Positions 33,251 to 52,626 of a DNA stretch of 64,000 nt are shown here, piece after piece (positions within the stretch are counted from its first letter, which is position 1; each line of letters begins with the position of its first letter). Source of the stretch: an uncultured Actinomycetes bacterium (lineage in GTDB: Bacteria > Actinomycetota > Thermoleophilia > UBA2241). The position numbers and the translations under genes are program-made. The stretch lies in NCBI GenBank assembly GCA_963709345.1, contig CAVPVX010000004.1, positions 288,001-352,000 on the forward strand, given 5' to 3'. The notes below the pieces were generated by a model that did no database searches, was not told the origin of the DNA, and saw nothing but the letters and a program-made list of their open reading frames with translations.

Positions 33251-33855
33251 GTTCGGCCGTCCTCGAGCAGTTCCGCAGCGTCGGCCGCGACCTCTTCGTC
33301 GCCGGCGTCGTCAGCTCGCACGGCGGAAACATGAGTGTGCGCATGGGCGATCGCATCCTCATCACCCGGCGTGGCTCGATGCTCGCGCGTTTGGAGGAGC
33401 GGGACATCATCGAGACCGGGCTCGACGAGAACGACGCCAACGTGATGCTCGCCAGCACCGAGATCAACGTGCACCGCGCCATCTACCAGGGCACCGCCGC
33501 GCAGGCGATCGTGCACGCGCACCCGCCCTACACGATCGCTCGCTCGCTCGTCTGCGACGAGATCGTGCCCGTCGACAGTGAGGGCTCGTACCTCCTGCAC
33601 AAGGTGCCGATCGTACACACCGAGCTCACCGCCGGGTCGAAGGAAGTCGCGGAACTGCTGCGGCACGGGCTCAAGGAGTACGACATCGTGATGCTCCGGG
33701 GCCACGGCCCCTTCGCCATCGGGCACCTGCTCGAGGAGGCCTACCAGCTCACCAGCGTGTTGGAGATGTCGTGCCGGATCATGACCATCGCCGATGGGCT
33801 CGGCGATCAGGTCAAGGAGTACCGCAAGGGGTCAGAGCGGTACGAGACCTGGTGA
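33247..33855 (+). CDS. Class II aldolase/adducin family protein
   Basis: 'GGNMSVR', 'ASTE..VH', 'AIVHAHP', 'LRGHG'. Confidence 0.9.
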   Translation: MSSAVLEQFRSVGRDLFVAGVVSSHGGNMSVRMGDRILITRRGSMLARLEERDIIETGLDENDANVMLASTEINVHRAIYQGTAAQAIVHAHPPYTIARSLVCDEIVPVDSEGSYLLHKVPIVHTELTAGSKEVAELLRHGLKEYDIVMLRGHGPFAIGHLLEEAYQLTSVLEMSCRIMTIADGLGDQVKEYRKGSERYETW

Positions 33856-37037: not shown

Positions 37038-37580
37038 TCAGGAACCCGGGGCGAGGTCGTCGGCGGAGTCCGGCTCGCCGGCGTCAGGAGAATCCGAGGG
37101 CGCGGGCGTCTCGGCGAGGCCCGCCGGGCCGGCGGGCTCGGCGGGAGCGCCCGGCGAGTCTCCGGCTTGCGGTGCGCCCGGCGAGTCTGCGGCTTCCGGA
37201 GCGCCGGGAGATCCGGGGGCTCCGGCCGTCGCGGCAGCGCTTTCGTCGGTGGCGGCAGCTCCCGCGACGGCGCCCGCGACCGCCGCGGCCTCCACCGTCT
37301 CGCCGCCGCTCGCGGCGGCACCCGGCGCACCCGGCGCGGGCGCCTCGATGGCCGACTTCAGGTCGACGGTCGACTTGAGGTCGCTGACGGTGGACTTGAC
37401 GGAGCTGATCTCGGAAGCGACGTCGTCGAGGCCGAGTTCCGTGCGCGCCGTGGCGGCGGCATTGCGGAACTCGCGGATGCCCTTGCCGAGCGACCGGCCC
37501 ATCTGCGGCAGTTGCTTGGGTCCGAAGACGAGCAACGCCAAGACGAGGACGACGACTATCTCGATGGGTCCGACGTTCAC
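37038..37580 (-). CDS. tatA: TatA/TatB family subunit with a long Ala/Pro/Gly/acidic tail
   Basis: 'GPIEI......ALLVFGPKQLPQMGRSLGKGIREFR', directly upstream of tatC. Confidence 0.88.
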   Translation of the reverse strand: MNVGPIEIVVVLVLALLVFGPKQLPQMGRSLGKGIREFRNAAATARTELGLDDVASEISSVKSTVSDLKSTVDLKSAIEAPAPGAPGAAASGGETVEAAAVAGAVAGAAATDESAAATAGAPGSPGAPEAADSPGAPQAGDSPGAPAEPAGPAGLAETPAPSDSPDAGEPDSADDLAPGS

Positions 37581-37850
37581 AGGAGGGGCACCTCGTTAGG
37601 GGGTATCGTGCCACTCCATCGTACGAGCCGCGGGGCCGCAGGTCAACGCGGCGCACGGCGAGCGTCCAAAGTCGTCGTCCAGATGTGGCCAATGCGTCGC
37701 CCGCTGGCGTGATTCCCCTGCAAAAGGGGGCTTGCCGCACATACCCCCTCCGGTTTCCCCGTCAGTTGCGTCGCGAGAAGCTGCTTTGGTAGAGTACGCC
37801 GACGGTCCGCTCGGTCTCTGGTGGCAGGGGCTCGGGCCATCCACCTTCAG

Positions 37851-38219
37851 ATGACAAGCACATATCTCACCAACTGGTTGTACGTATGGCTGTTCATCGC
37901 CGCCGGCGGTGCGCTGGTCGTTCTCATCCTGCTCTTTTCCAAGCTCATCAACCCGAGTCACCTCACGCCCGAGAAGCTGCAGCCCTACGAGTGCGGCATC
38001 CCTCCGGTCGGCAATCCCTGGCAGCCGTTCGCGGTGCGCTACTTCGTGTACGGGCTCCTGTTCCTGGTGTTCGATGTGGAAGCCGCGTTCCTGTTCCCCT
38101 GGGCGCTCGTCTTCCGCTCGCTGGGCCCGGCCGGGTTCATCGAGATGCTCCTGTTCATCGCCGTGCTGGCCCTCGGGCTTCTGTACGCCTGGCGCAAGGG
38201 GGCTCTCGAGTGGGCGTAG
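37851..38219 (+). CDS. nuoA: NADH-quinone oxidoreductase subunit A
   Basis: 'K..PYECG', 'FLVFDVE..FLFPWA', '[10 protein letters not shown]'. Confidence 0.95.
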
Positions 38220-38779
38220 GCGACTATCTGCCGGAGCGCGTCAAGGCCGTCCGGTATCCCAAGCTCGAGCACTTCAGCGAGCCCAACGTCATCACTACGA
38301 CGGCCGACTTCATCTTCAGCTGGGCGCGCTCGCACTCGGTGTTCCCGTTCACGTACGGCCTCGCCTGCTGCGCCATCGAGATGCTGAGCTCCGGGTTCGC
38401 CCGCTTCGACGTGGCGCGCTACGGCATGGAGGTCTTCCGGCCGACACCGCGCCAGTGCGACCTCATGATCGTCGCCGGTACCGTCAACGAGAAGATGGCG
38501 CCGGTCCTCAAGCGCCTGTACGACCAGATGGCGGAGCCCAAGTGGGTCATCAGCATGGGCGCCTGCGCGACCAGCGGCGGCCCCTTCTACGACGGCTACA
38601 ACGTCGTGAACGGGGTCGACAAGATCGTCCCGGTCGACGTGTACATCCCCGGGTGCCCGCCGCGTCCCGAGGCGCTGTTCCAGGGGCTGCTGGAGCTCCA
38701 GGTCAAGATCCAGCAGCACAAGTTCGTCGCCGAGAAGCCGGCCATCGCCGAGGCCGCCGCACCGGATGGGGAGGCCTGA
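38210..38779 (+). CDS. nuoB: NADH-quinone oxidoreductase subunit B
   Basis: 'GLACCAIEM', '[12 protein letters not shown]', 'MGACA..GG', 'DVYIPGCPP'. Confidence 0.95.
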
Positions 38780-38783
38780 GCGC

Positions 38784-39278
38784 ATGGGTCTCGAGATCGG
38801 CACTCACCCGATGGGCATGGACGAGATCGCGGCGCTGCTTGCCGAGCGCTTCGCCGCCGAGTTCTTTGACGTGCGCGTGCAGGAGCCGGTCACCGTGGTC
38901 GCGCGCTGCGCCCGCGAGAATCTGGCAGGCGTCGCGAGGAGTCTCAAAGAGCATCCGGATGTCGGGTACGAGACCCTCAACTGGATCGCCGGCGTCGACC
39001 ACGTGAAGTACTTCGAGAGCGTGTACCACGTGTACAGCTGGAAGACCAACACCTATCTCGAGCTTCACGTCGAGGTGCCTTGCGCCACGCCCGAGGTCGA
39101 GACCGTCAGCGCTGTATGGCCCGCCGCCGATTGGCACGAGCGCGAGTCCTTCGACATGGTCGGCATCGTCTACACCGGCCATCCCGACCTGCGCCGCATC
39201 CTGCTCAAGGACGACTTCATCGGGCACCCGCTGCGCAAAGACTACGTCGACCTCGCCGAGAACCACCCGCATGTTTGA
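38784..39278 (+). CDS. nuoC: NADH-quinone oxidoreductase subunit C
   Basis: '[17 protein letters not shown]...[10 protein letters not shown]......HPLRKDY'. Confidence 0.95.
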
Positions 39279-40485
39279 CGAGTTCGAGACACCCGAGCCG
39301 GACGAGGCCGTCAAGCTCGCGCTGCGCCGCATCGACGAAGCGACGGCGCGCGGCGAGGGCTCGGACGCCGACGGCCTCGCCTTCAACGAGTTGGTCGTCA
39401 ACATGGGGCCGCAGCATCCCAGCACGCACGGCGTGCTGCGCCTCGTGGTCACGCTTGACGGCGAGTTGGTCAAAGACGTCATCCCGGTCGTCGGCTACCT
39501 GCACCGGTGCAAAGAGAAGCTCGCCGAGCGCCGCACCTACTACCAATACATCCCCATAGTCGATCGCACCGAGTACCTGGCCAGCATCAACTGCGAGTGG
39601 GCCTACGTCATGACCGTCGAGAAGCTCGCCGGCATCCAGCCGACGCGGCGGGCGGAGTTCATCCGCGTCATCACCGGCGAGCTCATGCGCATCGCCAGCC
39701 ACCAGGTCGCCGTCGGCACCTTCACCGCCGACCTCTCGCCGCTGGGCACGGCCATGATCTTCTACATGTTCCGCGACCGTGAGTACATCCTCGACCTCCT
39801 CGAGGAGCTTACGGGCGCGCGCATGATGTTCAACTACTTCCGCTTCGGCGGCGTGCGCTACGACCTGCCGGACGGCTGGACCTCAAGGTGTCGCGCGTTC
39901 ATGAAGAAGCTGCCGAAGCTCATCGACGAGTACGAGTCGCTGGTCGACGACAACGCGATCTTCCTGCAGCGCACCCAGGGCAAGGGCGTCATCACCCAGC
40001 AGGACGTCGTCGACTACGGCATCACCGGACCGTGCGCACGCGCCTCGGCGGTCGCCCACGACCTGCGCCGCACGCGGCCGTACTCGGTGTACCCGGAGCT
40101 CGATTTCGAGGTCTGCACGCTCGACCACGGGGACATCTTCGACCGCTACAAAGTCCGTATGAACGAGATGCGCGAGAGCATCAGGATCGTCGAGCAGTGC
40201 CTGGACATGCTGCCCAAGGGGCCGGTGCAGACCGGCTCGCTGCGCGCTCCCTACGTCATCACGCCGCCGCCCGGCTCCTGCTACGTCGGTCAGGAGAATC
40301 CACGTGGCGAGTACGGCACCTACATCGAGAGCGACGGCTCGAGGTATCCGTACCGGCTCAAGTACCGCGACCCGTGCTTCTGCAACCTGCAGATCTTCCC
40401 CAAGCTCCTCAGCGGCAACAAGATCGCCGACGCGGTGGCCATCTCGGGCAGCATCGACCTCGTCCTCGGAGGCATCGACCGCTAG
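39271..40485 (+). CDS. nuoD: NADH-quinone oxidoreductase subunit D
   Basis: '[15 protein letters not shown]', 'GYLHR..EK', 'DRTEY', 'GE.MRIASH', 'ENPRGE', '[11 protein letters not shown]'. No NiFe CxxC pairs. Confidence 0.95.
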
Positions 40486-41604
40486 ATGGACGTCCTGCTC
40501 GCCATCCTTCGCGCCCTCGCCTTCGTCGTCATCGCCTACACGGTGGTGTTCGTCGCGGCGCTGGTGAACATCGTCTTCGAGCGCCGCGTCCTCGCCTTCA
40601 TGCAGGACCGCCACGGGCCCAACCGCACGGGCCCGCACGGCGTGCTGCAGAGCGTCGCCGACGCCTTCAAGATGATGGGGAAGGAGGACTTTCGCCCGCT
40701 GCTCGCCGACCCGTTCCTGTTCACGCTCGCCCCGGTCATGGTGATGATCGGGGCGGTGGCCGTGCAGTTGGTGCTCCCGTACACGGCCGGCATCACTGCG
40801 ACCGACCTCAACGTCGGCGTCATCTTCATCGTCGCGATCACCAGCTTCACGACGTTGGCGATCCTGCTGGGCGGCTGGTCGTCGCGCAACAAGTACTCCC
40901 TGGTCGGCGCGCTGCGCGCCGCCGCCCAGATGATCAGCTACGAGATCCCCATGATCCTCGGCCTGATCGTCGTCGTCATGGTCGTCGGTTCGTTCAGCGT
41001 CTCCGCCGTTGTCGAGGCGCAGGCCGGCTTCCAGTGGATCGCGTTCTACGCGCCCTTCACCTTCCTGATCTTCTACATCGCCTCGATCGCGGAGCTCAAT
41101 CGCGGCCCCTTCGATCTGCCCGAGTCCGAATCGGAGCTCGTGTCCGGCTACGGCACCGAGTACTCGGGCATGCGCTTCGGCATGTTCTTCCTCAACGAAT
41201 ACGCCGGCATGACCATCATGTCGATGGTCGCCGTGACGCTGTTCTTCGGCGGCTGGCAGGGTCCGTACGACAGCGCCGTGGTGTTCTTGGGCGTGTCGTG
41301 GATAGGCCTCGCCTGGTTCATCCTCAAGACCTACGTGCTCGTCTTCGCCCTGGTCTGGATCCGCCTGTCGCTGCCGCGTCTGCAGGTCGACCAGCTCATG
41401 GGCTTCGCCTGGAAGATCCTCATCCCGCTCGGCCTTGCGAACATCCTCGCCACGGCGGCGGTGATGCTCTGGGTGCCGAGCTGGAAGTGGGGGCTCGCGG
41501 TCTTCAGCTGGGTCGCGCTCCTCGCCTTCGTCGGCCTCTTCGACCCGATCCTCAAGTACCGCCTGCGCAAGCAGCGTGAGCGCCGGCCGGTGGTGAGCGC
41601 CTGA
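40486..41604 (+). CDS. nuoH: NADH-quinone oxidoreductase subunit H
   Basis: 'ERRVLA.MQDRHGPNR.GP.G.LQ..ADA.K', 'ISYE', 'NRGPFDLPESESELVSG...EYSG'. Confidence 0.95.
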   Translation: MDVLLAILRALAFVVIAYTVVFVAALVNIVFERRVLAFMQDRHGPNRTGPHGVLQSVADAFKMMGKEDFRPLLADPFLFTLAPVMVMIGAVAVQLVLPYTAGITATDLNVGVIFIVAITSFTTLAILLGGWSSRNKYSLVGALRAAAQMISYEIPMILGLIVVVMVVGSFSVSAVVEAQAGFQWIAFYAPFTFLIFYIASIAELNRGPFDLPESESELVSGYGTEYSGMRFGMFFLNEYAGMTIMSMVAVTLFFGGWQGPYDSAVVFLGVSWIGLAWFILKTYVLVFALVWIRLSLPRLQVDQLMGFAWKILIPLGLANILATAAVMLWVPSWKWGLAVFSWVALLAFVGLFDPILKYRLRKQRERRPVVSA

Positions 41605-42365
41605 TGCTCGGCATGTTCAAAGCCATGCGCACGACGCTCAAACATCTGCCGATGAAGAAGATCACGGTGCAGTATCCCGAGCAGCGCGATCGCCTGCCGG
41701 AGCGTAGCCGCGGCCTGTTTCGCGTCGTCATCGACCCGGCGAGCGGCGAGCCGCGTTGCCGCGCCTGCACGCTCTGCGAGAGCAACTGCCCGGTGCAGGT
41801 CATCCGCGTCAACTACGAGAGCAAGTACCGGCTCCCCGTGCCCAACGCGGCGCGCGTCGCGGAGGCGCGTCTCGCAGCGCAGACGGGCGTCGACCTCAAG
41901 GAACTGCAGCCGGTGCTCGACGACTACTACGAGCACGGCACCGGTCTCATCGCCATACTGCAGAACGCGCAGGAGGTCTACGGCTATCTGCCGCGCCTGG
42001 TGCTGCAGGAGATCGGTCTGCAGACGGGCGTCTCGCTCAGCCAGATCTACGGCGTCTCGAGCTTCTACAACCAGTTCCGGCTCTCCCCCGTCGGCGAGCA
42101 CATCATCGACGTGTGCCACGGCACCGCCTGCCACGTGGCGGGTGCGGTGCAGATCACCGAGGCCCTCGAGGAGGAGCTCGGCGTCGCCGAGGGCAAGACC
42201 ACGACGGACATGAAGTTCACGCTGTCGTCGGTGGCCTGCATGGGCGCCTGCTCGCAGGCTCCCGTGATGCGCATCGGCGACGCGACCTACGGCGCTCTCA
42301 CCCCCGACAAGACGCGCAAGATCATCCGCGACCTCATGCAAGAGGTCGGCGGTGAGAGGGGGTGA
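41604..42365 (+). CDS. Fusion of the NuoI N-terminal half with a NuoE/HydC-type [2Fe-2S] subunit
   Basis: Residues 1-75 match the NuoI N-terminus: 'TTLKHL..KKITVQYPE...LPERSRG...CRACTLCESNCP'. From about residue 96 it matches NuoE: 'LIAILQ.AQE.YGYLP', 'YGVSSFY.QF', 'CHGTACH', 'VACMGACS.AP'. Confidence 0.9.
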   Translation: MLGMFKAMRTTLKHLPMKKITVQYPEQRDRLPERSRGLFRVVIDPASGEPRCRACTLCESNCPVQVIRVNYESKYRLPVPNAARVAEARLAAQTGVDLKELQPVLDDYYEHGTGLIAILQNAQEVYGYLPRLVLQEIGLQTGVSLSQIYGVSSFYNQFRLSPVGEHIIDVCHGTACHVAGAVQITEALEEELGVAEGKTTTDMKFTLSSVACMGACSQAPVMRIGDATYGALTPDKTRKIIRDLMQEVGGERG

Positions 42366-44278
42366 GCGGAGGCGGCATGGCTGACGAGACCCCGACACCA
42401 CGCGCCGCGACCGACGTGCGTAACGTCAGCGTCGCCGAAGGACCGGACGGCAGGTTCACCGTCAAGGTGTGCGCGGGTACGGCCTGCGTGTTCGCCGGCT
42501 CCCTCGCGGTCTACGACGCGTTCGTCGAGGAGGTCGCGGCCGCCGGGCTGGGAGACAAGGTCGAGGTGAGCATCATCGGGTGCCATGGGCTCTGCTCGAT
42601 GAGTCCGGTCGTGGTGCTCGGCGACGACACGCTCTACGGCCATCTGCGGCCGAAGGACGTCGGCAAGGTCGTCGAGGAGCACCTCAAGGGGGGCGTGCCG
42701 GTCGAGCGGTTCCTCTACAAGGACGCCCAGACCGGCGAACGCATCCGCGACTGGCACGATATCGGCTTCTACAAAGCGCAGACGCGCATCGCGCTCCGCG
42801 ACGTCGGCGTCATCGACCCCGAGAGCATCGACGCCTACCTCGAGCGCGGCGGTTACGAGGCTGCGCGCATGGCGCTCACCGAGAAGACGCCCGAGTGGAT
42901 CATCGAGCACGTCACCGACTCGGGCATCCGCGGTCGCGGCGGCGCGGGGTTCCCGACCGGCGTCAAGTGGAAGTTCGCGGCGCAGTCGAAGAGTGAGATC
43001 AAGTACCTCATCTGCAACGCCGACGAGGGCGACCCCGGCGCGTTCATGGATCGCTCGATCCTCGAGGGCGATCCGCACGCCGTCATCGAGGGCATGCTCA
43101 TCGCCAGCTACGCGATCGGCGCGAGCGAGGGCTACGTGTACGTACGTGCCGAGTACCCGCTCGCGGTCAAGCGCCTCACCATGGCGATAGCCGACGCCGA
43201 GGCGCGCGGCTTCCTCGGCAAGGACGTCTTCGGCACCGGCTGGGAGTTCAGCCTCCACCTCAAGCTCGGCGCCGGCGCGTTCGTCTGCGGCGAGGAGACC
43301 GCCCTGATCGCCAGCATCGAGGGCAAGCGCGGCATGCCGCGCTCACGGCCGCCCTACCCCGCAGTCAGCGGCCTCTGGGGCAAGCCGACCAACATCAACA
43401 ACGTCGAGACGCTCGCCAACATCGCCTGGATCGTCACCCACCCCGCCGCGGCCTACTCGGACCTGGGCATCGACGTCAGCCGCGGCACCAAGGCCTTCAG
43501 CCTGGCCGGCAAGCTCGTCAACGGCGGCCTCGCCGAGGTGCCGATGGGCAGCACGCTGCGCCACGTGATCTTCGACGTCGGCGGCGGCATCAAGGGCGGC
43601 AAGAAGTTCAAGGCCGTGCAGCTCGGCGGTCCGTCCGGGGGCTGCGTGCCGGCGAGCCTGCTCGACACCCCGGTCGACTACGAGAGCCTCGCCGCGACCG
43701 GCGCCATCGTGGGTTCCGGCGGCATGGTCGTCGTCGACGAAGAAACGTGCATGGTCGACCTCGCGCGCTTCTTCCTCGACTTCACGCAGAAGGAATCGTG
43801 CGGCAAGTGCATCCCCTGCCGCCTCGGCACCAAGCGCATGCTCGAGGTCCTCGACCGCATCATCGCCGGCGACGGCCGCGAGGGCGACATCGAGTTGCTT
43901 GAGGAGCTCGGCGCCTACATCATCGAGGGCTCGCTCTGCGCCCTCGGCGGCACCGCTCCGAACCCCGTGCTGACGACCATCAAGTACTTCCGCAGCGAAT
44001 ACGAGGCCCACATCCGCGAGAAGCGCTGTCCGGCCGGGACGTGCAAGTCGCTGATCACGTACTACATCGATCCGGACGCGTGCACCGGCTGCACCCTCTG
44101 CGCCAAGAAGTGCCCGACCTCGTGCATCACCGGCGAGAAGAAGCAGCTGCACGTGATCGACGTCGCGAACTGCATCAAGTGCGACACGTGCCGCCAGGTC
44201 TGCAAGTTCGACGCGGTCAAGGTGCGCTCGGGCATCGAGCAGGCCGTGGCCGGCACCTCCGAAGGGGCTGAGAGCTGA
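42362..44278 (+). CDS. nuoF: NuoF/HydB-type FMN/NADH subunit with an N-terminal thioredoxin-like [2Fe-2S] and C-terminal 2x[4Fe-4S] domains (bifurcating type)
   Basis: 'CAGTAC...GCHGLC', 'GRGGAGFPTG.KW', 'CNADEGDPGAFMDR', 'GAGAFVCGEETAL', 'GGPSGG', 'ESCGKCIPCR', 'HIREKRCPAGTC', 'CTGCTLCAKKCP', 'CIKCDTCRQVC'. Alternative ATG at 42377. Confidence 0.92.
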   Translation: MSGGGMADETPTPRAATDVRNVSVAEGPDGRFTVKVCAGTACVFAGSLAVYDAFVEEVAAAGLGDKVEVSIIGCHGLCSMSPVVVLGDDTLYGHLRPKDVGKVVEEHLKGGVPVERFLYKDAQTGERIRDWHDIGFYKAQTRIALRDVGVIDPESIDAYLERGGYEAARMALTEKTPEWIIEHVTDSGIRGRGGAGFPTGVKWKFAAQSKSEIKYLICNADEGDPGAFMDRSILEGDPHAVIEGMLIASYAIGASEGYVYVRAEYPLAVKRLTMAIADAEARGFLGKDVFGTGWEFSLHLKLGAGAFVCGEETALIASIEGKRGMPRSRPPYPAVSGLWGKPTNINNVETLANIAWIVTHPAAAYSDLGIDVSRGTKAFSLAGKLVNGGLAEVPMGSTLRHVIFDVGGGIKGGKKFKAVQLGGPSGGCVPASLLDTPVDYESLAATGAIVGSGGMVVVDEETCMVDLARFFLDFTQKESCGKCIPCRLGTKRMLEVLDRIIAGDGREGDIELLEELGAYIIEGSLCALGGTAPNPVLTTIKYFRSEYEAHIREKRCPAGTCKSLITYYIDPDACTGCTLCAKKCPTSCITGEKKQLHVIDVANCIKCDTCRQVCKFDAVKVRSGIEQAVAGTSEGAES

Positions 44279-44280
44279 CC

Positions 44281-46755
44281 ATGGCGACCACGGCGGAGAA
44301 CGTACCCCAGACGAAGCCGCGCCCCGGCCAGATCACCCTGACCATCGACGGACAGGAAGTCACCTGCGAGCGCGGCGACACGATCCTCGAGGCTGCGCAG
44401 CGCATCGGCATCCACATCCCGACTCTCTGCTACGAGCCGCGGCTCCCGGCCACCGCCGCCTGCCGCATGTGCATCGTCGAGGTCGAGGGCGCCCGCAAGG
44501 TCGTCCCGAGCTGCTCCTCGGCGGTCAGCGACGGCATGGTCGTGCGCACCAACACCGACAAGGTGCGCGCCATGCGGCACCTGTATCTCGAGCTGCTGCT
44601 CAGCGACCACAACTCGTTCTGCACGCCGCCGTGCCGCGACGCCTGCCCGACGCACATCAAGATCCCGCAGTTCCTCGACTACATCGCTCACAAGGACTAC
44701 AAGAACGGCGTGCGCAAGCTGCGCGAGGATCTGCCCTTCCCGGCCATCTTGGGGCGCGTCTGCCCGCGGCCCTGTGAGGGACCGTGCCGTCGCCAGCTCG
44801 TGGAGCACCCCATCACCATCTGCCAGCTCCACCGCTTCATGGCCGACCAGACCATCGACGAGGAGCAGACCGGCGAGCTGCTGCTGCCGGTCGAGCCGAA
44901 GGCCGACACCGGTAGAAGGATCGCCGTCGTGGGTGGCGGGCCCGCCGGCCTGGCATGCGCGTTCTATGCCCGGCTCGAGGGGCACTCGGTCAAGATCTTC
45001 GAGGCCCTGCCCAAGCCGGGCGGTATGCTCCGCTACGGCATCCCCAGCTACCGCCTGCCGCGCGACCTCCTCGACAAGGAGATCAACGTGCTCTGGCGCA
45101 TGGGTGTCGAGATCCAAGTCGACAGCCGTCTCGGCGTTGACTACCAGCTTGAGGATCTGCTGGGCGAGTACGACGCCGTCTTCCTCGGCCTCGGCGCCTT
45201 CAACAGCAACGACATGCGCATCCCCGGTGAAGACGCCGACGGAGTCGTCACCGCCGTCGACTTCCTCGGCGAGCTCGAGCGCACCGGCGAGGTGCACGTG
45301 GGCAAGAAGGTCACCGTCATCGGTGGCGGCTTCACGGCCATGGACGCCTGCCGCACCGGCTTGCGCAAAGGCGCCGCCGAGGTCACCTGCCTCTACCGCC
45401 GCTCGCGCAAGGAGATGCCGGCGCACCACACCGAGGTCGACGAGGCCGAGGAGGAGGGCGTCAAGCTCGAGCTTCTCTGCGCGCCGCTCCGCGTGCTCAC
45501 CGACGGCGCGAACAAGGTCACCGGCATCGAGATGCAGCGCATGGAGCTGGGCGAGCCCGACGCCTCCGGGCGCCGCCGCCCCGTGCCGGTCGAGGGCTCG
45601 GAGTTCGTCGTCGAGTGCGACCAGGTCATCGCCGCCATCGGCCAGTACCCCAAGCTCGACGGCACCAGCGAGGAACAGGGCGTCAAACGCACCAAGTGGC
45701 GTACGATCGAGGTCGACGACTGGACCTTCCAGACGGATGATCCGCGCGTCTTCGCCGGCGGTGACGCCGTGCTCGGCGCGCAGACGGTGATCCAGGCCGT
45801 GGCGCAGGGCAAGAAGGCCGCCTGGAGCATCGACGCCTTCCTGCGCGGCGCCGACATGCGCGACGTGGGGCAGTCGCTCGCGGAGCTCAAGGCCACGCCG
45901 TTCTTCAACGCGCTGACGAACAAGACGGATCTCGACCCGCGCATCGCGCGAATGGCCGAGATCCCACCCGTGTTCATCGACATGACCACCGACGTGAAGC
46001 ACCCGAGCCCGCCCGCCGAGATGCCCAAGCTCCCCCCCGACGAGCGCAGGACCAACTTCAAGCAGATCGAGCTCGGCTTCAGCGAAGAAGAGGCCGTCCG
46101 CGGCGCCGAGCTCTGCCTCGATTGCTACTGCCCGGCGAACGGCAAGTGCGACCTCCAGCGGTACAGCATCGAGTACGAGGTGTTCAAGAACCGCTTCCAC
46201 GGCGGCGAAGCCCACGACTACCCGGCCGACTTCCGCCACGACTTCATCATGCGCGAGCCCAACCGCTGCATCAATTGCGGGCGCTGCGTGCGCGTCTGCC
46301 GCATGGAGGTGGGCTCGAGCTGCTACGACAACATGGGCCGCGGGTTCGACTCCATCGTCAGCACGGCCGACAATCTGCCGCTGCAGCTGGTCGGCTGCGT
46401 GAGTTGCGGCAAGTGCGCGGAGACCTGCCCGACCGGGTCCATCGAGACCAACCCGCGCCTGCTCGCCAGCTACGACCTGGACGAGAGCCGCTGCATCTTC
46501 TGCGGGGAGTGCGTCGAGGTCTGCCCCTACGACGCGCTCGAGCAGACCGACTACTACGAGCTTGCCGGCTACAATCGCACGACCATGGCGAGGGAGTCGC
46601 TCTACGTGCGTGAGCCGCGCCCCGCCGACCCGCTGCGCGAGACGCTCCCCGACCTCGTGCCGCACGTGCGCGACGCGGTGCTGGGCGCCGGCTGGGTGTG
46701 GGATCCGATCAAGGACGACCCGATCGACCTGGGCGACCCGGAGGAGGCCGGCTGA
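44281..46755 (+). CDS. NuoG-like Fe-S / GltD-like FAD-NADPH oxidoreductase fused to the NuoI C-terminal half
   Basis: 2Fe-2S 'IPTLC..ACRMC..SC'. GltD region 'PPCRDACP', 'GRVCPRPCEGPC', 'GGGPAG', 'GGMLRYGIP.YRLP', 'GGGFTAMD', 'YRRS', 'FAGGD'. Then 'CINCGRCVRVC' and 'CVSCGKCAETCP', and finally the NuoI-type 'YDLDESRCIFCGECVEVCPYDAL....YELAGYNR'. Confidence 0.9.
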   Translation: MATTAENVPQTKPRPGQITLTIDGQEVTCERGDTILEAAQRIGIHIPTLCYEPRLPATAACRMCIVEVEGARKVVPSCSSAVSDGMVVRTNTDKVRAMRHLYLELLLSDHNSFCTPPCRDACPTHIKIPQFLDYIAHKDYKNGVRKLREDLPFPAILGRVCPRPCEGPCRRQLVEHPITICQLHRFMADQTIDEEQTGELLLPVEPKADTGRRIAVVGGGPAGLACAFYARLEGHSVKIFEALPKPGGMLRYGIPSYRLPRDLLDKEINVLWRMGVEIQVDSRLGVDYQLEDLLGEYDAVFLGLGAFNSNDMRIPGEDADGVVTAVDFLGELERTGEVHVGKKVTVIGGGFTAMDACRTGLRKGAAEVTCLYRRSRKEMPAHHTEVDEAEEEGVKLELLCAPLRVLTDGANKVTGIEMQRMELGEPDASGRRRPVPVEGSEFVVECDQVIAAIGQYPKLDGTSEEQGVKRTKWRTIEVDDWTFQTDDPRVFAGGDAVLGAQTVIQAVAQGKKAAWSIDAFLRGADMRDVGQSLAELKATPFFNALTNKTDLDPRIARMAEIPPVFIDMTTDVKHPSPPAEMPKLPPDERRTNFKQIELGFSEEEAVRGAELCLDCYCPANGKCDLQRYSIEYEVFKNRFHGGEAHDYPADFRHDFIMREPNRCINCGRCVRVCRMEVGSSCYDNMGRGFDSIVSTADNLPLQLVGCVSCGKCAETCPTGSIETNPRLLASYDLDESRCIFCGECVEVCPYDALEQTDYYELAGYNRTTMARESLYVREPRPADPLRETLPDLVPHVRDAVLGAGWVWDPIKDDPIDLGDPEEAG

Positions 46756-47264
46756 TGCCCGGCGGCGACTTCCATCCCTGGTTCTTCGTCATCGTCGCCG
46801 CGTGGGTGCTCGTCTGCGGCCTCGGCGTCGTGCTGTTCAAGAAGATCATGTACTCGGCCGTGTCGATGATCTTCTGCTTCCTCGGCGTGGCGTTCGCCTT
46901 CGCGCTGCTCAACGCGCCGCTGGTCGCCGTCCTGCAGATCGTGATCTACGTCGGCGCCATCTCGATCGTCGTGATCTTCGCGATCATGCTCACCGAGGTC
47001 CAGACCGGCGGCTTCGAGCTCTTCTTCAACCGCCAGACGCTGGGCGCGGCCGTCGTCGCCCTCGTCGGCGCCGCGGTCCTCGCCGTGGTCGCCCTGTCGG
47101 CGGACATCGGGGCAGTGGGCGAGAAGTCGCTCACCCCGGGCATCAAGACGCTGTCGCGTCTCATCTTCGACCGGTACGTGCTGCCGTTCGAGTTGGTCTC
47201 GCTGGTGCTGGTGGCGGCCATGATCGGCGCCATCGTCCTCGCGCATCGAGAGGAGGAGCGCTGA
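46755..47264 (+). CDS. nuoJ: NADH-quinone oxidoreductase subunit J
   Basis: 'QIVIYVGAI.IV.IFAIML', 'Y.LPFEL.S.VL..AMIGAI'. Confidence 0.93.
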   Translation: MPGGDFHPWFFVIVAAWVLVCGLGVVLFKKIMYSAVSMIFCFLGVAFAFALLNAPLVAVLQIVIYVGAISIVVIFAIMLTEVQTGGFELFFNRQTLGAAVVALVGAAVLAVVALSADIGAVGEKSLTPGIKTLSRLIFDRYVLPFELVSLVLVAAMIGAIVLAHREEER

Positions 47265-47572
47265 TGGATCCACTCCAGTGGTGGCTGTTGCTCTCGATCC
47301 TGCTCTTCTGCATCGGCGCCTTCGGCGTGCTCGCCCGGCGGAACGTGATCGTCGTCGTCATGAGCCTCGAGATCATGCTCAGCGCGGTGAACATCGCGCT
47401 GGTCGCGACCGCCAACTTCAGGGGCGGCGCGCGTGGCGCCGGCACGCTCTTCGCACTGTTCATGATCGTGCTGGCCGCCTCCGAGGTCACGGTGGGCCTG
47501 GCGATAGTCATCGCCAACTACCGCAACCGGCGCACCGTACAGACCGACACCTACGACGAGCTCAAGGGGTAG
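47264..47572 (+). CDS. nuoK: NADH-quinone oxidoreductase subunit K
   Basis: 'RRNVI...MSLEIML', 'AASE..VGLAI', ending 'LKG'. Confidence 0.93.
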   Translation: MDPLQWWLLLSILLFCIGAFGVLARRNVIVVVMSLEIMLSAVNIALVATANFRGGARGAGTLFALFMIVLAASEVTVGLAIVIANYRNRRTVQTDTYDELKG

Positions 47573-47603
47573 CGAGGAAGCACCGGTGGAGGGGACTCAG
47601 TAC

Positions 47604-49502
47604 ATGAAGATCGCCGTGGCGCTCATCCCGCTGCTGCCGCTGCTCGGCTTCATCGTGACGCTCGTGCTCGGCAAGCGCTGGGGCGCCAGGGCCCACATCC
47701 TTGCGGTCGCGCTCGTCACCGTCTCGGCGGCGCTCAGCATCTACGCCTTCATCTGGGCGTTCACGCATCAGCACGAGACCTTCGTCTGGGACGCCTTCAC
47801 CTGGGTCGCGGCCGGTCGCTTCACCGTCGAGTGGGGTTTCCAGGTCGACACCCTGACCGGCGTCATGCTCCTCGTGGTCGGCATCATCGGCATGGTCGTG
47901 CACTACTACTCGATCGGCTACATGCACGGCGACGAGGGCTACTACCGCTTCTTCGCCTACCTCAACCTGTTCATGTTCGCGATGTTCGTGCTCATCCTCG
48001 CCGACAACTACCTCCTGCTCTTCCTCGGCTGGGAGGGCGTGGGCCTGTGCTCGTACCTGCTGATCGCCTTCTGGTTCCGCAAGAAGAGCGCCAGCCAGGC
48101 GGGCAAGAAGGCCTTCATCGTCAACCGGGTCGGCGACTTCGGCTTCATGCTCGCCATGTTCACCATCTTCACGGCGACCGGCACGCTCCAGTTCAGCGGC
48201 GTCTTCGAGGCCGCCGAGTCCGGCGCGATCGCCGGCGGCACCATGACCTGGATCTGCCTGCTGCTGTTCGCCGGCGCGATCGGCAAGAGCGCCCAGTTCC
48301 CGCTGCACGTGTGGCTGCCGGACGCCATGGAGGGCCCCACGCCGGTCAGCGCGCTCATCCACGCCGCCACGATGGTCAACGCCGGCGTCTACATGGTCGC
48401 GCGCTCGTACCCGCTGTTCATCAGCAGCGAGACGGCGATGCTCGTCGTCATGGGTATCGGCATCTTCACCGCGATCTTCGCGGCCTACATCGCGATCACC
48501 CAGAACGACATCAAGAAGGTGATCGCGTACTCCACCATCTCGTCGCTCGGCTTCATGTTCGTGGCGCTCGGCGCCGGGGCCTGGGTGGCGGGCATCTTCT
48601 ACCTGTTCGCGCACGGCTTCTTCAAGGGACTGCTGTTCCTCTGCTCGGGCTCGGTGATCCACGCCATGGGCGGGGAACAGGACATGCGCAAGATGGGGGG
48701 ACTGCGCAAGAAGCTCCCCATCACCTTCTGGACGATGATGGCCGGCGCCCTCTCCATGGTCGGACTGATCCCCTTCGCAGGCTTCTGGGCCAAGGACGAG
48801 ATCATCGGCGCGACGTTCATCCACGGGTACTACGTGGTGTGGGCGGTGGCGATGGTCGTCGTGCTCCTCACCGCCATCTACATGGGGCGTCTCATGTTCC
48901 TCACCTTCTGGGGCGAGAACCGCTCCGACGCCGAGGTGCAGGCCCATATCCACGAGTCGCCGCCGATCATGACGGTGCCGCTGATCGTCCTCGCGATCCC
49001 TGCCGCCCTGCTCGGCCTCGTCGTCGGCCTGCCGCCCGAGGGAGGCTGGATCCACGACTTCCTGCACCCGGTCTTCTTCGATGTCGAGGGCGAGCCGTTC
49101 CACCTGCTCGGCGAGGGCGGGCTGCTCATGCTCGCCTCCCTCGCCACTGTGCTGGTGGGTCTGTACGTCGCCTACTACCTCTACGTGCGCCAGACGGAGA
49201 TCCCCGGGCGCATCGCCGCGCGCGTTCCCGTCGCCTACAAGGCCAGCCTCAACAAGATGTACATGGACGACATCTACGACGTCGTGCCGATCCGCGCCAC
49301 GCTCGGGTTCGCCGACTGGCTCTGGACCTTCTTCGACGTCAAAGTCATCGACGGCGCCGTCAACGGCATGGCCCGCCTCTGGGGCTGGGCCGGCGACCGC
49401 TTGCGGCCCATCCAGACCGGTCGCGTCCAGAGCTACGCCATGTACATGTTCGCCGGCATGGTGCTTCTCGTGATCGTCTTCGCCTGGGTCTGGGTGAGTT
49501 GA
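47604..49502 (+). CDS. nuoL: NADH-quinone oxidoreductase subunit L
   Basis: 'YSIGYM', 'GWEGVGLCSYLLI', 'NRVGDFG', 'GKSAQFPLHVWLPDAMEGPTPVSALIHAATMV', 'QTGRVQ.Y'. ATG at 47604 with RBS GGAGG. Confidence 0.95.
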   Translation: MKIAVALIPLLPLLGFIVTLVLGKRWGARAHILAVALVTVSAALSIYAFIWAFTHQHETFVWDAFTWVAAGRFTVEWGFQVDTLTGVMLLVVGIIGMVVHYYSIGYMHGDEGYYRFFAYLNLFMFAMFVLILADNYLLLFLGWEGVGLCSYLLIAFWFRKKSASQAGKKAFIVNRVGDFGFMLAMFTIFTATGTLQFSGVFEAAESGAIAGGTMTWICLLLFAGAIGKSAQFPLHVWLPDAMEGPTPVSALIHAATMVNAGVYMVARSYPLFISSETAMLVVMGIGIFTAIFAAYIAITQNDIKKVIAYSTISSLGFMFVALGAGAWVAGIFYLFAHGFFKGLLFLCSGSVIHAMGGEQDMRKMGGLRKKLPITFWTMMAGALSMVGLIPFAGFWAKDEIIGATFIHGYYVVWAVAMVVVLLTAIYMGRLMFLTFWGENRSDAEVQAHIHESPPIMTVPLIVLAIPAALLGLVVGLPPEGGWIHDFLHPVFFDVEGEPFHLLGEGGLLMLASLATVLVGLYVAYYLYVRQTEIPGRIAARVPVAYKASLNKMYMDDIYDVVPIRATLGFADWLWTFFDVKVIDGAVNGMARLWGWAGDRLRPIQTGRVQSYAMYMFAGMVLLVIVFAWVWVS

Positions 49503-49503
49503 C

Positions 49504-51090
49504 GTGAGCTGGAACGACCAGATCGGCTTCCCGATTCTCTCCGTCATCACCTTCCTGCCGCTCGCCGGCGTGCTGGTGATCCTGCTCGTGGGCCGCGGCC
49601 GCCCCGTCGTGTACAAGACGATCGCCCTCATCGTGACGCTGGCGGCGTTCGTCCTCTCGGTGTGGATGCTGTTCGCCTTCAGGACCACGCTGCCGGGCAT
49701 GCAGTTCGCCGAAGACCTGAAGTGGATCGAGGCGCTGAACATCCACTACGGCATGGGCGTCGACGGCATCGCCGCGCTGCTCGTCTTCCTGACGACGCTG
49801 CTCGGCTGCATCGTCATCATCTCCAGTTGGAACTACGTGAAGGACCGTGAGGTCGGCTTCTTCATCTCGCTGCTGCTTCTCCAGGTGGGGATGGTCGGCG
49901 TCTTCTGCGCCACCGACCTCTTCCTCTTCTACGTGTACTGGGAAGCCATGCTGGTGCCGATGTACTTCATCATCGGCATCTGGGGCGGCCCGCGCCGGGT
50001 CTACGCGGCGATCAAGTTCTTCCTGTTCACGCTGGTCGGCAGCCTGCTCATGCTCGTCGCGATCATCGTCGTCGTGTACTACGTGCAGGACGGCGCGGGG
50101 CCGCTGACGTTCGACATCCAGGAGCTCAGCCGCCAGGTGTACTCGTATCACCTGCAGTTCTGGGCCTTCCTCGCCTTCTTCCTGGCGTTCGCCATCAAGG
50201 TGCCGATGTTCCCGCTGCACACCTGGCTCCCGGATGCCCATGTCGAGGCGCCGACGGCCGGCTCCGTCATCCTCGCCGGCGTGCTCCTCAAGATGGGCGG
50301 CTACGGCATGCTGCGCTTCTGCCTGCCGTTCTTCCCGGACGCCTCGGTGACGTTCATCCCGTGGGTGGTAGGGCTCTCGGTGATCGCGATCATCTACGGC
50401 GCGCTCGTCGCGCTCATGCAGAAGGACCTCAAGAAGCTGGTCGCGTACTCGAGCGTGAGCCACATGGGTTTCGTCACCGCCGGCATCTTCGCCAGCATCG
50501 CGCTGGTCGGCAACGCGGCCGGCATGGAGGGCGCGATCCTCGTCATGCTCAGCCACGGCTTCCTCACCGGCGCCCTGTTCCTCATGGTCGGCTACGCCTA
50601 CGAGCGCACGCACACACGCCTGATCGCCGACATGGGCTCGCTGGCCAAGCCGCTGCCCATCCTGGCCGGGTTCTTCCTCTTCTTCGCCTTCGGCTCCGCC
50701 GGGCTGCCCGGCCTGAGCGGCTTCGTCGGCGAGTTCCTCAGCCTGCTCGGCGTCTTCGAGTACTCGCGCTGGCTGGCGGCGCTCGGCGCGCTCGGCGTGA
50801 TCCTCGCCGCCGCCTACCTCCTCTGGATGTTCCAGCGCACGATGTTCAACGACCGTGGCGACGCCGACGTGAAGCCCACGTTCGAGCTCAAGGACCTGAA
50901 CGCCCGTGAGATCGTGTCGCTGCTGCCGCTGGTCGTCTTCGTCGTCTGGCTCGGCGTGTATCCCGAGACGTTCCTGAACTTCCTGCACGTGCCGGTGCAG
51001 GCGATCCTCGACAAGGTCACGCCGTCGCTCCAGGACGCGAGCGTGCATGGGCTGGCGCAGCTCTTCGACGTCACCAGGGGGCTGTTCTAG
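49504..51090 (+). CDS. nuoM: NADH-quinone oxidoreductase subunit M
   Basis: 'GVDGI', 'FYVYWE..LVPMY', 'IKVPMFPLHTWLPDAHVEAPT', 'LLKMGGYG', 'AYSSVSHMG', 'GLPG..GFVGEF'. Confidence 0.95.
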   Translation: MSWNDQIGFPILSVITFLPLAGVLVILLVGRGRPVVYKTIALIVTLAAFVLSVWMLFAFRTTLPGMQFAEDLKWIEALNIHYGMGVDGIAALLVFLTTLLGCIVIISSWNYVKDREVGFFISLLLLQVGMVGVFCATDLFLFYVYWEAMLVPMYFIIGIWGGPRRVYAAIKFFLFTLVGSLLMLVAIIVVVYYVQDGAGPLTFDIQELSRQVYSYHLQFWAFLAFFLAFAIKVPMFPLHTWLPDAHVEAPTAGSVILAGVLLKMGGYGMLRFCLPFFPDASVTFIPWVVGLSVIAIIYGALVALMQKDLKKLVAYSSVSHMGFVTAGIFASIALVGNAAGMEGAILVMLSHGFLTGALFLMVGYAYERTHTRLIADMGSLAKPLPILAGFFLFFAFGSAGLPGLSGFVGEFLSLLGVFEYSRWLAALGALGVILAAAYLLWMFQRTMFNDRGDADVKPTFELKDLNAREIVSLLPLVVFVVWLGVYPETFLNFLHVPVQAILDKVTPSLQDASVHGLAQLFDVTRGLF

Positions 51091-52626
51091 ATGGGTCTGA
51101 ACAACACGATCTCAGTGATCCTGCCGGGCGTGGTCTTCGCGCTCGCCGCCGGGCTCGTCTTCGTCGTCGACCTCTTCGTGCGGCGTAAGGGCGCGCTTGC
51201 CTGGATCGCCGTCGCCGGTCTCGTCGCGGGCGCCGCCGTGGCCGTCGGCCAGTGGGGCCAGTGGACGGGGGGCTGGGCCGTCTGGAAGGTCTTCAGCGGC
51301 GGTCTCGGCTTCGGCCGGCGCGAGATGGTGGTGGGCTTTGCCGGCATGATCGGACACGACCGCTACGCGCTCTTCTGCGTCGTGCTGTTCGCCGCCGTCG
51401 GCGTCCTCACGATCATGCTCTCGGACGCCTATCTCGCGAAGCGCAAGGCCGCGCGCGGAGAGTTCTACGGCCTGCTGCTGCTCATCATCACCGGCATGAC
51501 CGGCATGGTCATGAGCACCGACATCGTCCCGTTCTTCGTGTCTTTCGAGCTCATGTCGCTCCCCACGTACATCCTGGCCGGGTACGTCTGGCGGGAGCAG
51601 CGCTCCACGGAGGCGGCGCTCAAGTACTTCGTGACCGGCGCCTTCTCCTCGGCGATCCTCGCCCTCGGCCTCGCGCTCCTGTACGCGGCCACCGGCCAGA
51701 CCAGCTATCGCGGCATCGCCGCCGGCCTCGGTGCTCTCGGCGGTCTCGAATCCGGCGGCTTCCTCGTCGTGGCCTTCGTGCTCGTGGTCACGGGCTTCGG
51801 CTTCAAGATCTCGGCGGTGCCCTTCCACAGTTGGGCGCCTGATGTGTACGAGGGGGCGCCCACGCCGGTCACGGCCTTCATGTCCGTCGGCGTGAAGGCC
51901 GCCGCCTTCGCCGGGTTCGCCAAGCTCTTCCTCATGGCCGCCGGCGTCGACTGGCAGCACTGGGGTCACGTCATGATCGTCCTCGCCGTGCTCACGATGG
52001 TGGTCGGGAACGTGCTGGCGCTGCCGCAACGCAATCTCAAGCGCATGCTCGCCTACTCGAGCATCGCCCACGCGGGCTACCTGACGCTCGGCATCATCGC
52101 CGCCGGCAAGAGCGGCGACCCGCTCGGGGTGAGTGCGATCCTCTTCTACCTCTCGGCCTACGCGCTCATGAACCTCGGCGCGTTCGGCGTCCTGATCTGG
52201 ATCCGCAGTCGCCGGACGTTCGCGTACACGCTCGACGAGATGGCCGGCCTGGGGCGCAGCCTGCCGTGGCCGGCCATTCTCATGGCGTTGTTCATGATCT
52301 CGCTCACCGGCATCCCGCCGACGGCCGGCTTCTGGGGCAAGTTCTACCTGTTCACGGCGGTCGTGCAGGCCGACCTCACCTGGCTCGCGATCGTCGCCGT
52401 GCTCATGAGCACCGTCTCCGCCTACTACTACCTGCGCGTCGTCTGGTACATGTACTTCCGTGAGGCGCCCGAGGAGGCGGAGATCGTCGCCGAGCCCAGG
52501 ACGTCGCAAGTGGGCGTCGCCGCCGCCGTCACGGTCGCCGCGCTCGGCGTCCTTCTGGTCGGCCTCTTCCCGGACCCGCTCCTGCGGGCCGCCGAGGGAG
52601 CGCTGCGCCTGCTCGCCGGCGGCTGA
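51091..52626 (+). CDS. nuoN: NADH-quinone oxidoreductase subunit N
   Basis: 'EAALKYF', 'FKISAVPFH.WAPDVYEGAP', 'KRMLAYSSIAHAGY', 'GIPPTAGF.GK', 'YYYLRV'. Confidence 0.95.
   Translation: MGLNNTISVILPGVVFALAAGLVFVVDLFVRRKGALAWIAVAGLVAGAAVAVGQWGQWTGGWAVWKVFSGGLGFGRREMVVGFAGMIGHDRYALFCVVLFAAVGVLTIMLSDAYLAKRKAARGEFYGLLLLIITGMTGMVMSTDIVPFFVSFELMSLPTYILAGYVWREQRSTEAALKYFVTGAFSSAILALGLALLYAATGQTSYRGIAAGLGALGGLESGGFLVVAFVLVVTGFGFKISAVPFHSWAPDVYEGAPTPVTAFMSVGVKAAAFAGFAKLFLMAAGVDWQHWGHVMIVLAVLTMVVGNVLALPQRNLKRMLAYSSIAHAGYLTLGIIAAGKSGDPLGVSAILFYLSAYALMNLGAFGVLIWIRSRRTFAYTLDEMAGLGRSLPWPAILMALFMISLTGIPPTAGFWGKFYLFTAVVQADLTWLAIVAVLMSTVSAYYYLRVVWYMYFREAPEEAEIVAEPRTSQVGVAAAVTVAALGVLLVGLFPDPLLRAAEGALRLLAGG

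Follow-up and report, generated by a model that had tools for sequence, protein, structure and literature searches.

Two halves of the complex I subunit NuoI flank a predicted electron-bifurcating module in an uncultured Thermoleophilia bacterium

In the genome of an uncultured member of the Thermoleophilia (Actinomycetota), the operon that encodes complex I contains no intact gene for NuoI, the subunit that connects the head of the complex to its core. Instead, NuoI is encoded as two complementary halves, the first fused to a NuoE-like protein and the second forming the C terminus of an NfnA-like protein, with a three-gene module occupying the space between the two. We analysed a window of 64,000 nt that carries this operon (positions 288,001 to 352,000 of contig CAVPVX010000004.1, assembly GCA_963709345.1). 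Homology and gene order make it likely that a two-chain NuoI joins a head of the electron-bifurcating (Bfu) type to complex I. The split subunit probably wires a head that handles NADPH, NADH and ferredoxin straight into the proton pump.

NuoI is encoded as two complementary halves

The nuo operon is one tightly packed unit on the plus strand (37821–52626). Its order is nuoA-B-C-D-H, followed by P0001 (41604..42365; 253 amino acids (aa)), in which an N-terminal half of NuoI is fused to a NuoE/BfuC-like [2Fe-2S] subunit; P0002 (42362..44278; 638 aa), a BfuB/NuoF-like flavoprotein; P0003 (44281..46755; 824 aa), a BfuA/NfnA-like subunit made up of a [2Fe-2S] domain, a GltD-type insert, an Fe–S region and the C-terminal half of NuoI; and nuoJ-K-L-M-N. 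Reading frames are unbroken throughout the P0001-P0002-P0003 insert, and the GC content is even over the operon region (0.64–0.70). The initial annotation had described tightly coupled junctions and intact frames, and both were confirmed at all four boundaries of the insert. The nuoH stop and the P0001 start overlap as TGATG (41602–41606), the P0001 stop (42363–42365) overlaps the P0002 GTG start at 42362 (GTGA; an alternative ATG lies at 42377), 2 nt separate the P0002 stop (44276–44278) from the P0003 ATG at 44281, and the P0003 stop overlaps the nuoJ ATG at 46755 (TGATG).

Residues 8–74 of P0001 (41625..41825) match positions 2–66 of the 121-position NuoI model TIGR01971 with 49.6 bits, and residues 724–770 of P0003 (46450..46590, with a tail that continues to 46752) match positions 69–115 with 57.9 bits. 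Each half alone scores below the curated cut-off of 113.05 bits; jointly, they cover the model with a gap of two positions between them, and all eight cluster cysteines of NuoI are present when both are counted together. The first CxxCxxCxxxCP motif, CRACTLCESNCP, is found at 41757–41792 in P0001. In P0003, YDLDESRCIFCGECVEVCP begins at 46471 and the second CxxCxxCxxxCP motif occupies 46492–46527. The initial claim that nuoI is split, with the insert lying inside it, is thus upheld, motif coordinates included.

Comparison with solved structures gave the same picture. The N-half matched NuoI, NDUFS8 or NdhI chains in 33 of its 34 matches in the PDB, and the single-stretch matches of the C-half land on the second half of NuoI/NdhI chains. 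The two halves occupy residues 23–91 and 98–136 of 7ar7_I, 7–82 and 88–129 of Thermus thermophilus Nqo9 (2fug_9), and 23–77 and 94–133 of Escherichia coli NuoI (7awt_I). These adjacent ranges place the break in the loop between the two CxxCxxCxxxCP motifs. As had been anticipated, the halves therefore align to complementary parts of NuoI, both on the family model and on solved chains.

P0003 carries three motifs of the CxxCxxCxxxCP type. Motifs A (C663, C666, C669 and C673) and B (C706, C709, C712 and C716) belong, together with C612, C615, C617 and C623, to a HydA/NuoG-type Fe–S region (residues 612–717, 46114..46431; PF22117 over 655–720), and align residue for residue with the dicluster domain of that type in solved NfnA and StnC. 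The homology to these proteins stops just where motif C (C738, C741, C744, C748 and P749) starts. Because it pairs A with B and ends at C, motif C is left without a partner in its own chain, and the motif of P0001 is therefore the obvious candidate. In 2x[4Fe-4S] ferredoxin folds, each cluster takes three cysteines of one motif and one of the other. The residues concerned are invariant, both in P0001 (C52, C55, C58, C62 and P63; 40 of 40 aligned homologues) and in motif C of P0003 (39 of 39). Because all eight half-motif cysteines are invariant, a two-chain domain equivalent to that of clusters N6a and N6b would be the economical reading.

The two halves were modelled together with four 4Fe-4S clusters in three runs, with three controls. 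The interaction prediction score from aligned errors (ipSAE) had a median of 0.57 (0.59, 0.57 and 0.53), and the best control reached 0.00; the predicted local distance difference test (pLDDT) of the partners was at least 54, and the runs shared at least 64% of contacts. In calibration, 58 of 80 solved complexes and 2 of 110 mismatched pairs scored high enough for a pass. Three points weigh against a two-chain domain. First, an ipSAE of 0.57 falls in a weak band, as scores of 0.60 or less came from just 7 of the 80 complexes and from both mismatched pairs that passed; the pass may reflect mere likeness to solved NuoI. Second, the AlphaFold2 model of P0003 (39-row alignment) has a mean pLDDT of 62.8, with residues 611–824 below 50, and gives no information on how the motifs pair. 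Third, motifs B and C of P0003 are spaced as in a ferredoxin, and the Pfam family Fer4_7 (706–752) reads them as one dicluster. Of the proposal that both clusters are built across two polypeptides, the complementary halves and invariant cysteines stand, and the multimer model of the halves adds weak support.

The third point leads to an alternative in which motifs B and C form a complete dicluster within P0003 that acts as the NuoI core. The motif in P0001 would then pair with motif A or hold no cluster, and the N terminus of that protein would serve as a mere anchor to the membrane arm. Beyond the Fer4_7 match, NuoI chains can be aligned to motifs B and C, and TIGR01971 positions 41–116 align to the same pair in the corresponding protein of a sister family. 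However, motifs A and B are the ones that match the NfnA/StnC dicluster, PF22117 covers them both (655–720) and the homology ends at motif C. In addition, the cysteines of the P0001 motif are conserved in 40 of 40 homologues, and the matches of P0001 to the first half of NuoI and of P0003 residues 724–770 to the second both score higher. We consider pairing within P0003 improbable, and a NuoI domain shared between P0001 and P0003 is assumed in what follows.

The inserted genes encode an Nfn/Stn-type BfuABC module

P0002 aligns with NfnB (9bov_B) over its full length (3–583 of 584 residues, 796 bits) and also matches StnB (8oh5_B) over the full length. Its domains are a thioredoxin-like domain (42440–42679), an FMN domain (42911–43426), an NADH_4Fe-4S domain (43757–44011) and a C-terminal 2x[4Fe-4S] domain (44060–44221). 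The match spans the first and the last of these, both of which are missing from ordinary NuoF. In P0001, the NuoI half is followed by NuoE-type sequence (residues 100–244), with a thioredoxin-like [2Fe-2S] domain of the NuoE/BfuC type at residues 104–244 (41913..42335; PF01257, E = 3e-47).

P0003 begins with a [2Fe-2S] domain (residues 17–92, 44329..44556; PF13510, E = 1.6e-21), followed by the GltD-type insert (residues 114–510, 44620..45810; PF14691 and PF07992; NF009454, 639 bits), which contains two [4Fe-4S] sites (Fer4_20) and a domain that binds FAD and NAD(P)H. Residues 19–744 align with residues 5–698 of the 1,178 in NfnA (9bov_A; E = 2.4e-190), residues 17–743 with StnC (8oh5_C) and residues 17–723 with an archaeal NfnA. 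The NfnA alignment takes in the 2Fe-2S domain, the GltD insert and the ligands of clusters A2–A4. No molybdopterin domain was found in P0003 among the 25 Pfam families listed for it, and the NfnA alignment ends at residue 744 of 824.

The features that mark Bfu enzymes are thus present, namely the BfuB domain set, the [2Fe-2S] cluster C1 of BfuC, and the 2Fe-2S, GltD and HydA-type clusters of BfuA. One feature of NfnA and StnC is missing, the molybdopterin-like C-terminal half, and the C-half of NuoI stands in its place. On homology, the inserted genes are a putatively electron-bifurcating BfuABC module of the Nfn/Stn type with a GltD insert predicted to serve FAD and NADPH. The earlier description of an 'E-F-G-like' head was correct as to a head of three genes; a copy of NuoEFG it is not, since P0002 and P0003 match NfnB/StnB and NfnA/StnC. 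In databases, proteins of this kind are named 'NADH-quinone oxidoreductase subunit E', 'FAD-dependent oxidoreductase', 'formate dehydrogenase major subunit', 'ferredoxin' or 'hypothetical protein'.

The arrangement recurs in independent assemblies

The host genome (3.11 Mb in 11 contigs) is 98% complete. A six-frame scan of all of it with TIGR01971 gave 44 matches, none of them an intact NuoI above the cut-off, and the best were the two halves themselves. The possibility raised in the initial annotation, that an intact nuoI lies elsewhere in the genome, thus found no support at this cut-off. The genome holds one copy each of nuoA–D, nuoH and nuoJ–N. Given this single set and the lack of an intact nuoI, the operon in the window is the organism's only complex I.

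Close relatives carry record titles that name uncultured Thermoleophilia (Actinomycetota). The best 120 of 1,182 homologues of P0001 (E up to 1e-10) are 236–340 aa long, show 67–91% identity over 96–100% of the query, and share the fusion of the NuoI N-half to NuoE. When the last 105 residues of P0003 were used as the query, the best 120 of 152 homologues (E up to 1e-3; 453–1,442 aa) were mostly of the same GltD architecture. Within the same family of organisms, full-length matches to the N-half–NuoE fusion without interruption were counted in about 61 of 81 genomes among the matches listed, beyond which there were 229 more.

The N-half was present in 56 of 64 related loci. Of the eight that lack it, six are labelled Planctomycetota and have an E-F-GltD module that stands alone, with nuo genes absent; the remaining two are fragments whose sequence begins inside the E gene. 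Strict adjacency of the A subunit and the C-half was seen in 34 of the 39 loci that were long enough, and in 33 of these it extended to nuoJ. In the other five, matches to the C-half and nuoJ lie at the expected place and the A-subunit match is broken, probably by frameshifts in long-read assemblies. Matches resembling the C-half in the Planctomycetota-labelled loci and in locus L063 were rejected as NuoI halves; they belong to the dicluster at the C-terminal end of the F subunit. Two short loci of the Thermoleophilia type, L020 (3.8 kb) and L062 (2.0 kb), with 71–89% identity, occur in metagenome-assembled genomes labelled Deltaproteobacteria and Vicinamibacteria, a placement that is probably due to mis-binning.

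Conservation extends to the remaining ligands. The [2Fe-2S] ligands in the NuoE part of P0001 (C171, C176, C212 and C216) are invariant in 40 sequences, and the cysteines of the P0003 Fe–S region, including those of motifs A and B, are invariant in 39. One might otherwise have suspected an artefact of assembly or of frameshifts, or an operon in decay that retains the halves as relics, since Bfu paralogues on other contigs of this genome are frameshifted and indel errors or pseudogenes therefore do occur in the assembly. Such an origin would have to account for the recurrence of these fusions, in unbroken frames, across dozens of independent assemblies, for invariant cluster ligands, and for the fact that this is the sole nuo operon of a 98%-complete genome. 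We give it almost no weight. The search for the same pair of fusions, which the initial annotation had proposed, thus found it in dozens of independently assembled Thermoleophilia genomes. Because the layout recurs in this way and the half-motif cysteines are invariant, the comparison indicates that the split arrangement is not an assembly artefact.

Variants and origin of the split

We surveyed 151 genomes of the class Thermoleophilia with the NuoI model and found an intact NuoI in 115. In the family to which the window belongs, 16 of 26 genomes have half matches only, and the other 10 have an intact NuoI as well. Some genomes of the genus have a canonical operon of the 14-subunit type alongside the split one; one of them (G134) has a separate operon in the order B-C-D-E-F-G-H-I-J…N with an intact NuoI (locus L082), which is missing from the host genome of the window.

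In a sister family, 17 of 24 genomes lack an intact NuoI. The operon there (L077–L080, in genomes G048, G018, G108 and G024) runs A-B-C-D-H, then a 607-aa protein that combines the N-half, a vestigial E and NuoF, then a 783-aa protein with the [2Fe-2S] domain, GltD insert, Fe–S region and C-half, and then J…N. Identity to the window proteins is 55–56% for NuoD, 58–60% for NuoL and 61–62% for NuoM in this sister-family operon, compared with 43%, 41% and 43% in the canonical operon of the same genus. Because their Q- and P-module proteins are closer to those of the sister family than to those of the canonical operon, the split-type complexes form a lineage of their own.

A further variant was found in a metagenome lineage (L083, L099, L105 and L110), in which nuoB is followed by an N-half–E-like fusion (246 aa), a NuoF of 443 aa and a GltD subunit that ends in the C-half (801 aa). 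On these four contigs, no further nuo gene lies within 9 kb, and the flanks are unrelated (P450, glycosyl hydrolase). The four were those looked at among the best 80 of 220 related stretches. In another Thermoleophilia family, a single chain (L081; genome G100, contig C7:12000-27000) combines a NuoI N terminus, a GltD part and a NuoI dicluster core that matches TIGR01971 positions 40–121 with 91 bits. It adjoins nuoB-C-D, genes whose transcription diverges from that of nuoA-H-J-L.

A search of representative proteins with the N-half gave 1,445 matches (E up to 1e-3), and among the best 150 were single-motif N-half fusions at 38–47% identity. Some of these belong to clusters with members labelled Chloroflexota or Candidatus Limnocylindria; among them, P0283 and the P0287 cluster are single-motif N-half proteins of 215–242 aa that are annotated as hypothetical. 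From these labels, a split NuoI may exist outside the Actinomycetota.

Paralogues of the inserted cassette occur in the host genome itself. On contig C7 (455000–470000; L073), an Nfn-type E-F-A cassette lies in a gene cluster for a 2-oxoacid:ferredoxin oxidoreductase, with a POR_N gene upstream; it has the alpha gene of that enzyme on one side and the TPP (beta) domain on the other. Its E-like protein has an N-terminal half motif, and in this assembly its F-like gene is interrupted by a frameshift and an in-frame stop. The A subunit (1,088 aa) is 41% identical to P0003 over residues 18–762, motif C included, and then continues into a PorB (TPP) domain. Both half motifs are best matched by NuoI models. 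Similar paralogues, which match P0001 from about residue 27–33, were found in many genomes of the family among the matches listed. The closest paralogues of the E (56–57% identity) and F (59–77%) parts lie on contig C3 (16306–18586; L074), with the F match in four pieces and genes for formate–tetrahydrofolate ligase and an FTCD_C protein as neighbours; no A-type subunit was found on that contig.

The gene order of the operon in the window fits insertion of the head into an 11-subunit operon, and we hypothesize that the head was grafted on in this way.

Predicted electron transfer

In Caldicellulosiruptor NfnABC, the electron path is given as FAD-A7-A6-A3-A2-A1-[B1-FMN-C1]-B3-B4-ferredoxin in the relevant section of the published account (PMC11829005). 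All of the parts to which the Bfu literature assigns bifurcation and ferredoxin binding are retained in P0001–P0003. In the enzyme proposed here, NADPH would enter at the FAD of the GltD insert (a predicted specificity) and NADH at the FMN of the BfuB subunit. The two NuoI halves, carried by the BfuC-like chain (N-half) and the BfuA chain (C-half), would fold together into one 2x[4Fe-4S] domain equivalent to that of N6a and N6b. Each cluster would take cysteines from both chains, presumably by the usual ferredoxin ligation, and the reconstituted NuoI domain would clamp the head onto the Q-module. A side branch past motif B would run to N6a/N6b, then to N2 on NuoB and then to menaquinone. We place N6a/N6b beyond motif B because the NfnA homology ends where the next cluster of NfnA, that of its molybdopterin domain, begins.

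Reduced ferredoxin would be the third partner, since the [2Fe-2S] cluster of BfuC and the C-terminal dicluster of BfuB are kept and the genome yielded no match to Rnf. In the 98%-complete genome, no match to RnfD, heme-copper oxidase, CdhC or DsrA was found. One cytochrome bd is encoded, as are ferredoxin enzymes, an aldehyde:ferredoxin oxidoreductase (AOR) in the window and a POR elsewhere. The complex would then couple the joint oxidation of NAD(P)H and ferredoxin to menaquinone reduction and proton pumping. Taken as a whole, an Nfn/Stn-type BfuABC head that a two-chain NuoI links covalently to the quinone module and that oxidises NAD(P)H and ferredoxin is the reading we favour, with reasonable though far from full confidence. 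For the ferredoxin coupling taken by itself, our prediction is more tentative and falls a little short of an even call.

What counts against ferredoxin coupling is the existence of reduced split variants that lack the BfuC cluster and the extra domains of BfuB. They lend weight to a different enzyme with the same two-chain NuoI, in which the head is a plain dual-input dehydrogenase that passes electrons from NADH (at FMN) and NADPH (at FAD) to menaquinone, with no ferredoxin coupling, bifurcation or confurcation. The sister family, with its 607-aa fusion of N-half, vestigial E and F, keeps the split NuoI and the GltD subunit without the cluster domain of BfuC or the extras of BfuB; the metagenome lineage, with its 443-aa NuoF and an E-like part that has no Pfam match, is likewise reduced. 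Since such variants do without the bifurcation parts, the core function of the split design would not depend on them. By contrast, in the variant in the window, the [2Fe-2S] ligands of BfuC and a complete BfuB are kept and conserved, and no Rnf for the recycling of ferredoxin was found, though the ferredoxin enzymes AOR and POR are encoded. A head without ferredoxin coupling is thus a serious contender that we nevertheless think unlikely.

Beyond the favoured reading of a head that oxidises NAD(P)H and ferredoxin, a more general proposal is that the half-ferredoxin motifs are a portable docking device, bounding an Nfn-type BfuC-B-A cassette that could be plugged into different Fe–S enzymes; the host genome alone has such a cassette in complex I and another in the 2-oxoacid:ferredoxin oxidoreductase. 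In complex I, this would give a four-substrate machine, in which flavin-based bifurcation or confurcation among NADH, NADPH, ferredoxin and menaquinone would be coupled directly to proton pumping through a natural two-chain N6a/N6b domain. We regard this extension as speculative and more probably wrong than right.

Other genes of the operon and its surroundings

The subunits of the Q- and P-modules (A, B, C, D, H, J, K, L, M and N) are all encoded together on the plus strand, each identified by a family match. Upstream of the insert lie nuoA (37821..38219; NF005839, E = 9e-30), nuoB (38210..38779; TIGR01957, E = 3.8e-69, and PF01058), whose GTG start lies inside the end of nuoA, nuoC (38766..39278; TIGR01961, E = 2.1e-35), nuoD (39271..40485; NF004739, 444 bits with a cut-off of 360) and nuoH (40486..41604; NF004741, 336.5 bits with a cut-off of 305). 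Downstream are nuoJ (46755..47264; PF00499, E = 7.2e-30), nuoK (47264..47572; PF00420, E = 5.5e-26), whose ATG overlaps the nuoJ stop, nuoL (47586..49502; NF005141, 734 bits), nuoM (49504..51090; TIGR01972, 609 bits) and nuoN (51091..52626; PF00361, E = 5.1e-71), which was assigned by its position in the operon as well. An open reading frame at 47278–47607 was rejected as nuoK because it is in the wrong frame and has no family match; its tblastn matches in related loci reflect conservation of the DNA.

In NuoB, two adjacent cysteines (CC) and two more (positions 47, 48, 113 and 143) are candidate ligands of N2. NuoD lacks an N-terminal cysteine pair and has DPCFC near its C terminus, the places where NiFe ligands would mark a hydrogenase as opposed to a protein with a quinone site.

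Farther upstream, the window encodes an AMP-binding enzyme (28519–30669), an AOR open reading frame (30737–33250; 837 aa) in which the AFOR_N domain begins only at residue 218, and a class II aldolase (33247–33855). On the minus strand before nuoA are genes for a PBP1-type transglycosylase/transpeptidase (33901–36162), tatC (36222–37031) and a tatA/B-like gene (37038–37580).

Discussion

Compared with canonical complex I (Nuo/Nqo of T. thermophilus, E. coli and Mycobacterium smegmatis), the operon described here has the same Q- and P-module subunits in one operon, and its NuoI content is complete if the halves are summed. It differs in that NuoI lies on two polypeptides, no E, F or G gene stands between nuoD and nuoH, and a Bfu-type head that includes a GltD insert is present. 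The order is the one seen in the 11-subunit 'headless' complex I, NDH-1 and Fpo, A-B-C-D-H-(I)-J-K-L-M-N with nothing between nuoD and nuoH, but those enzymes have an intact NuoI, NdhI or FpoI and dock ferredoxin or FpoF non-covalently. NfnABC and StnABC (9bov, 8oh5 and 9n5u) are the top PDB matches for both large subunits. Unlike in those enzymes, the molybdopterin-like C-terminal half (~480 residues) is replaced here by the NuoI C-half, the BfuC-like subunit bears the NuoI N-half, and the module lies inside a nuo operon.

A Bfu head on complex I is not in itself a new idea. Schut et al. (2022; PMC9304861) predicted, in the main text, a 'Nuo-Bfu', a proton-pumping, complex I-like enzyme that carries BfuABC in place of NuoEFG and uses menaquinone as its third substrate, encoded by a 14-subunit A–N cluster in Deferribacteres, Proteobacteria, Planctomycetes and Nitrospirae. 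Our proposal shares this idea, and a role in joint oxidation of NAD(P)H and ferredoxin was put forward there too. As in their description, BfuABC lies inside the nuo cluster in place of NuoEFG; in the operon in the window, it is at the position of nuoI and not between nuoD and nuoH. The main text of that paper has no wording on NuoI, fused, split, Actinobacteria or Thermoleophilia and no GltD site, although its supplementary tables might list related clusters; in the open full-text literature, the term Nuo-Bfu was found in this one paper only. In Mbx-like complexes, as portrayed in the pertinent part of Degli Esposti (2015; PMC4758237), a GltD-related flavoprotein takes the place of NuoI. A GltD-type NAD(P)H site at the NuoI position is common to both; there, one flavoprotein substitutes for NuoI, whereas the operon in the window retains NuoI in two parts around a three-gene Bfu module.

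The main texts of the open full-text literature yielded no description of a split NuoI, of NuoI–NuoE or BfuA–NuoI fusions, or of a GltD-bearing complex I head, and no split NuoI appears in the accessible text of PMC9304861, PMC4758237, PMC3144371, PMC5736913 or PMC9326234. The initial annotation knew of no described complex with this architecture. That holds for the split NuoI within this literature, and it needs amending for a Bfu head on complex I, which had been predicted (PMC9304861). On the basis of the gene sequences, the split NuoI would be the new element.

In the usual view, the head of complex I docks on an intact NuoI. In the operon described here, the connector subunit is itself divided and fused to the head, which would offer a natural case of a 2x[4Fe-4S] ferredoxin fold made from two chains and a concrete route for grafting new electron-input modules onto the 11-subunit core. 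The enzyme is a candidate for the long-predicted, never isolated member of the Bfu family that is linked to quinone and pumps protons, with an NADPH site in addition. Because the fusions would fix the position of the head relative to N2, it is an attractive target for cryo-electron microscopy of how a Bfu enzyme hands electrons over to its third partner. Because metagenomes from soil and sediment commonly contain this lineage, the enzyme may be important to the way in which uncultured, anaerobic Actinomycetota without Rnf conserve energy.

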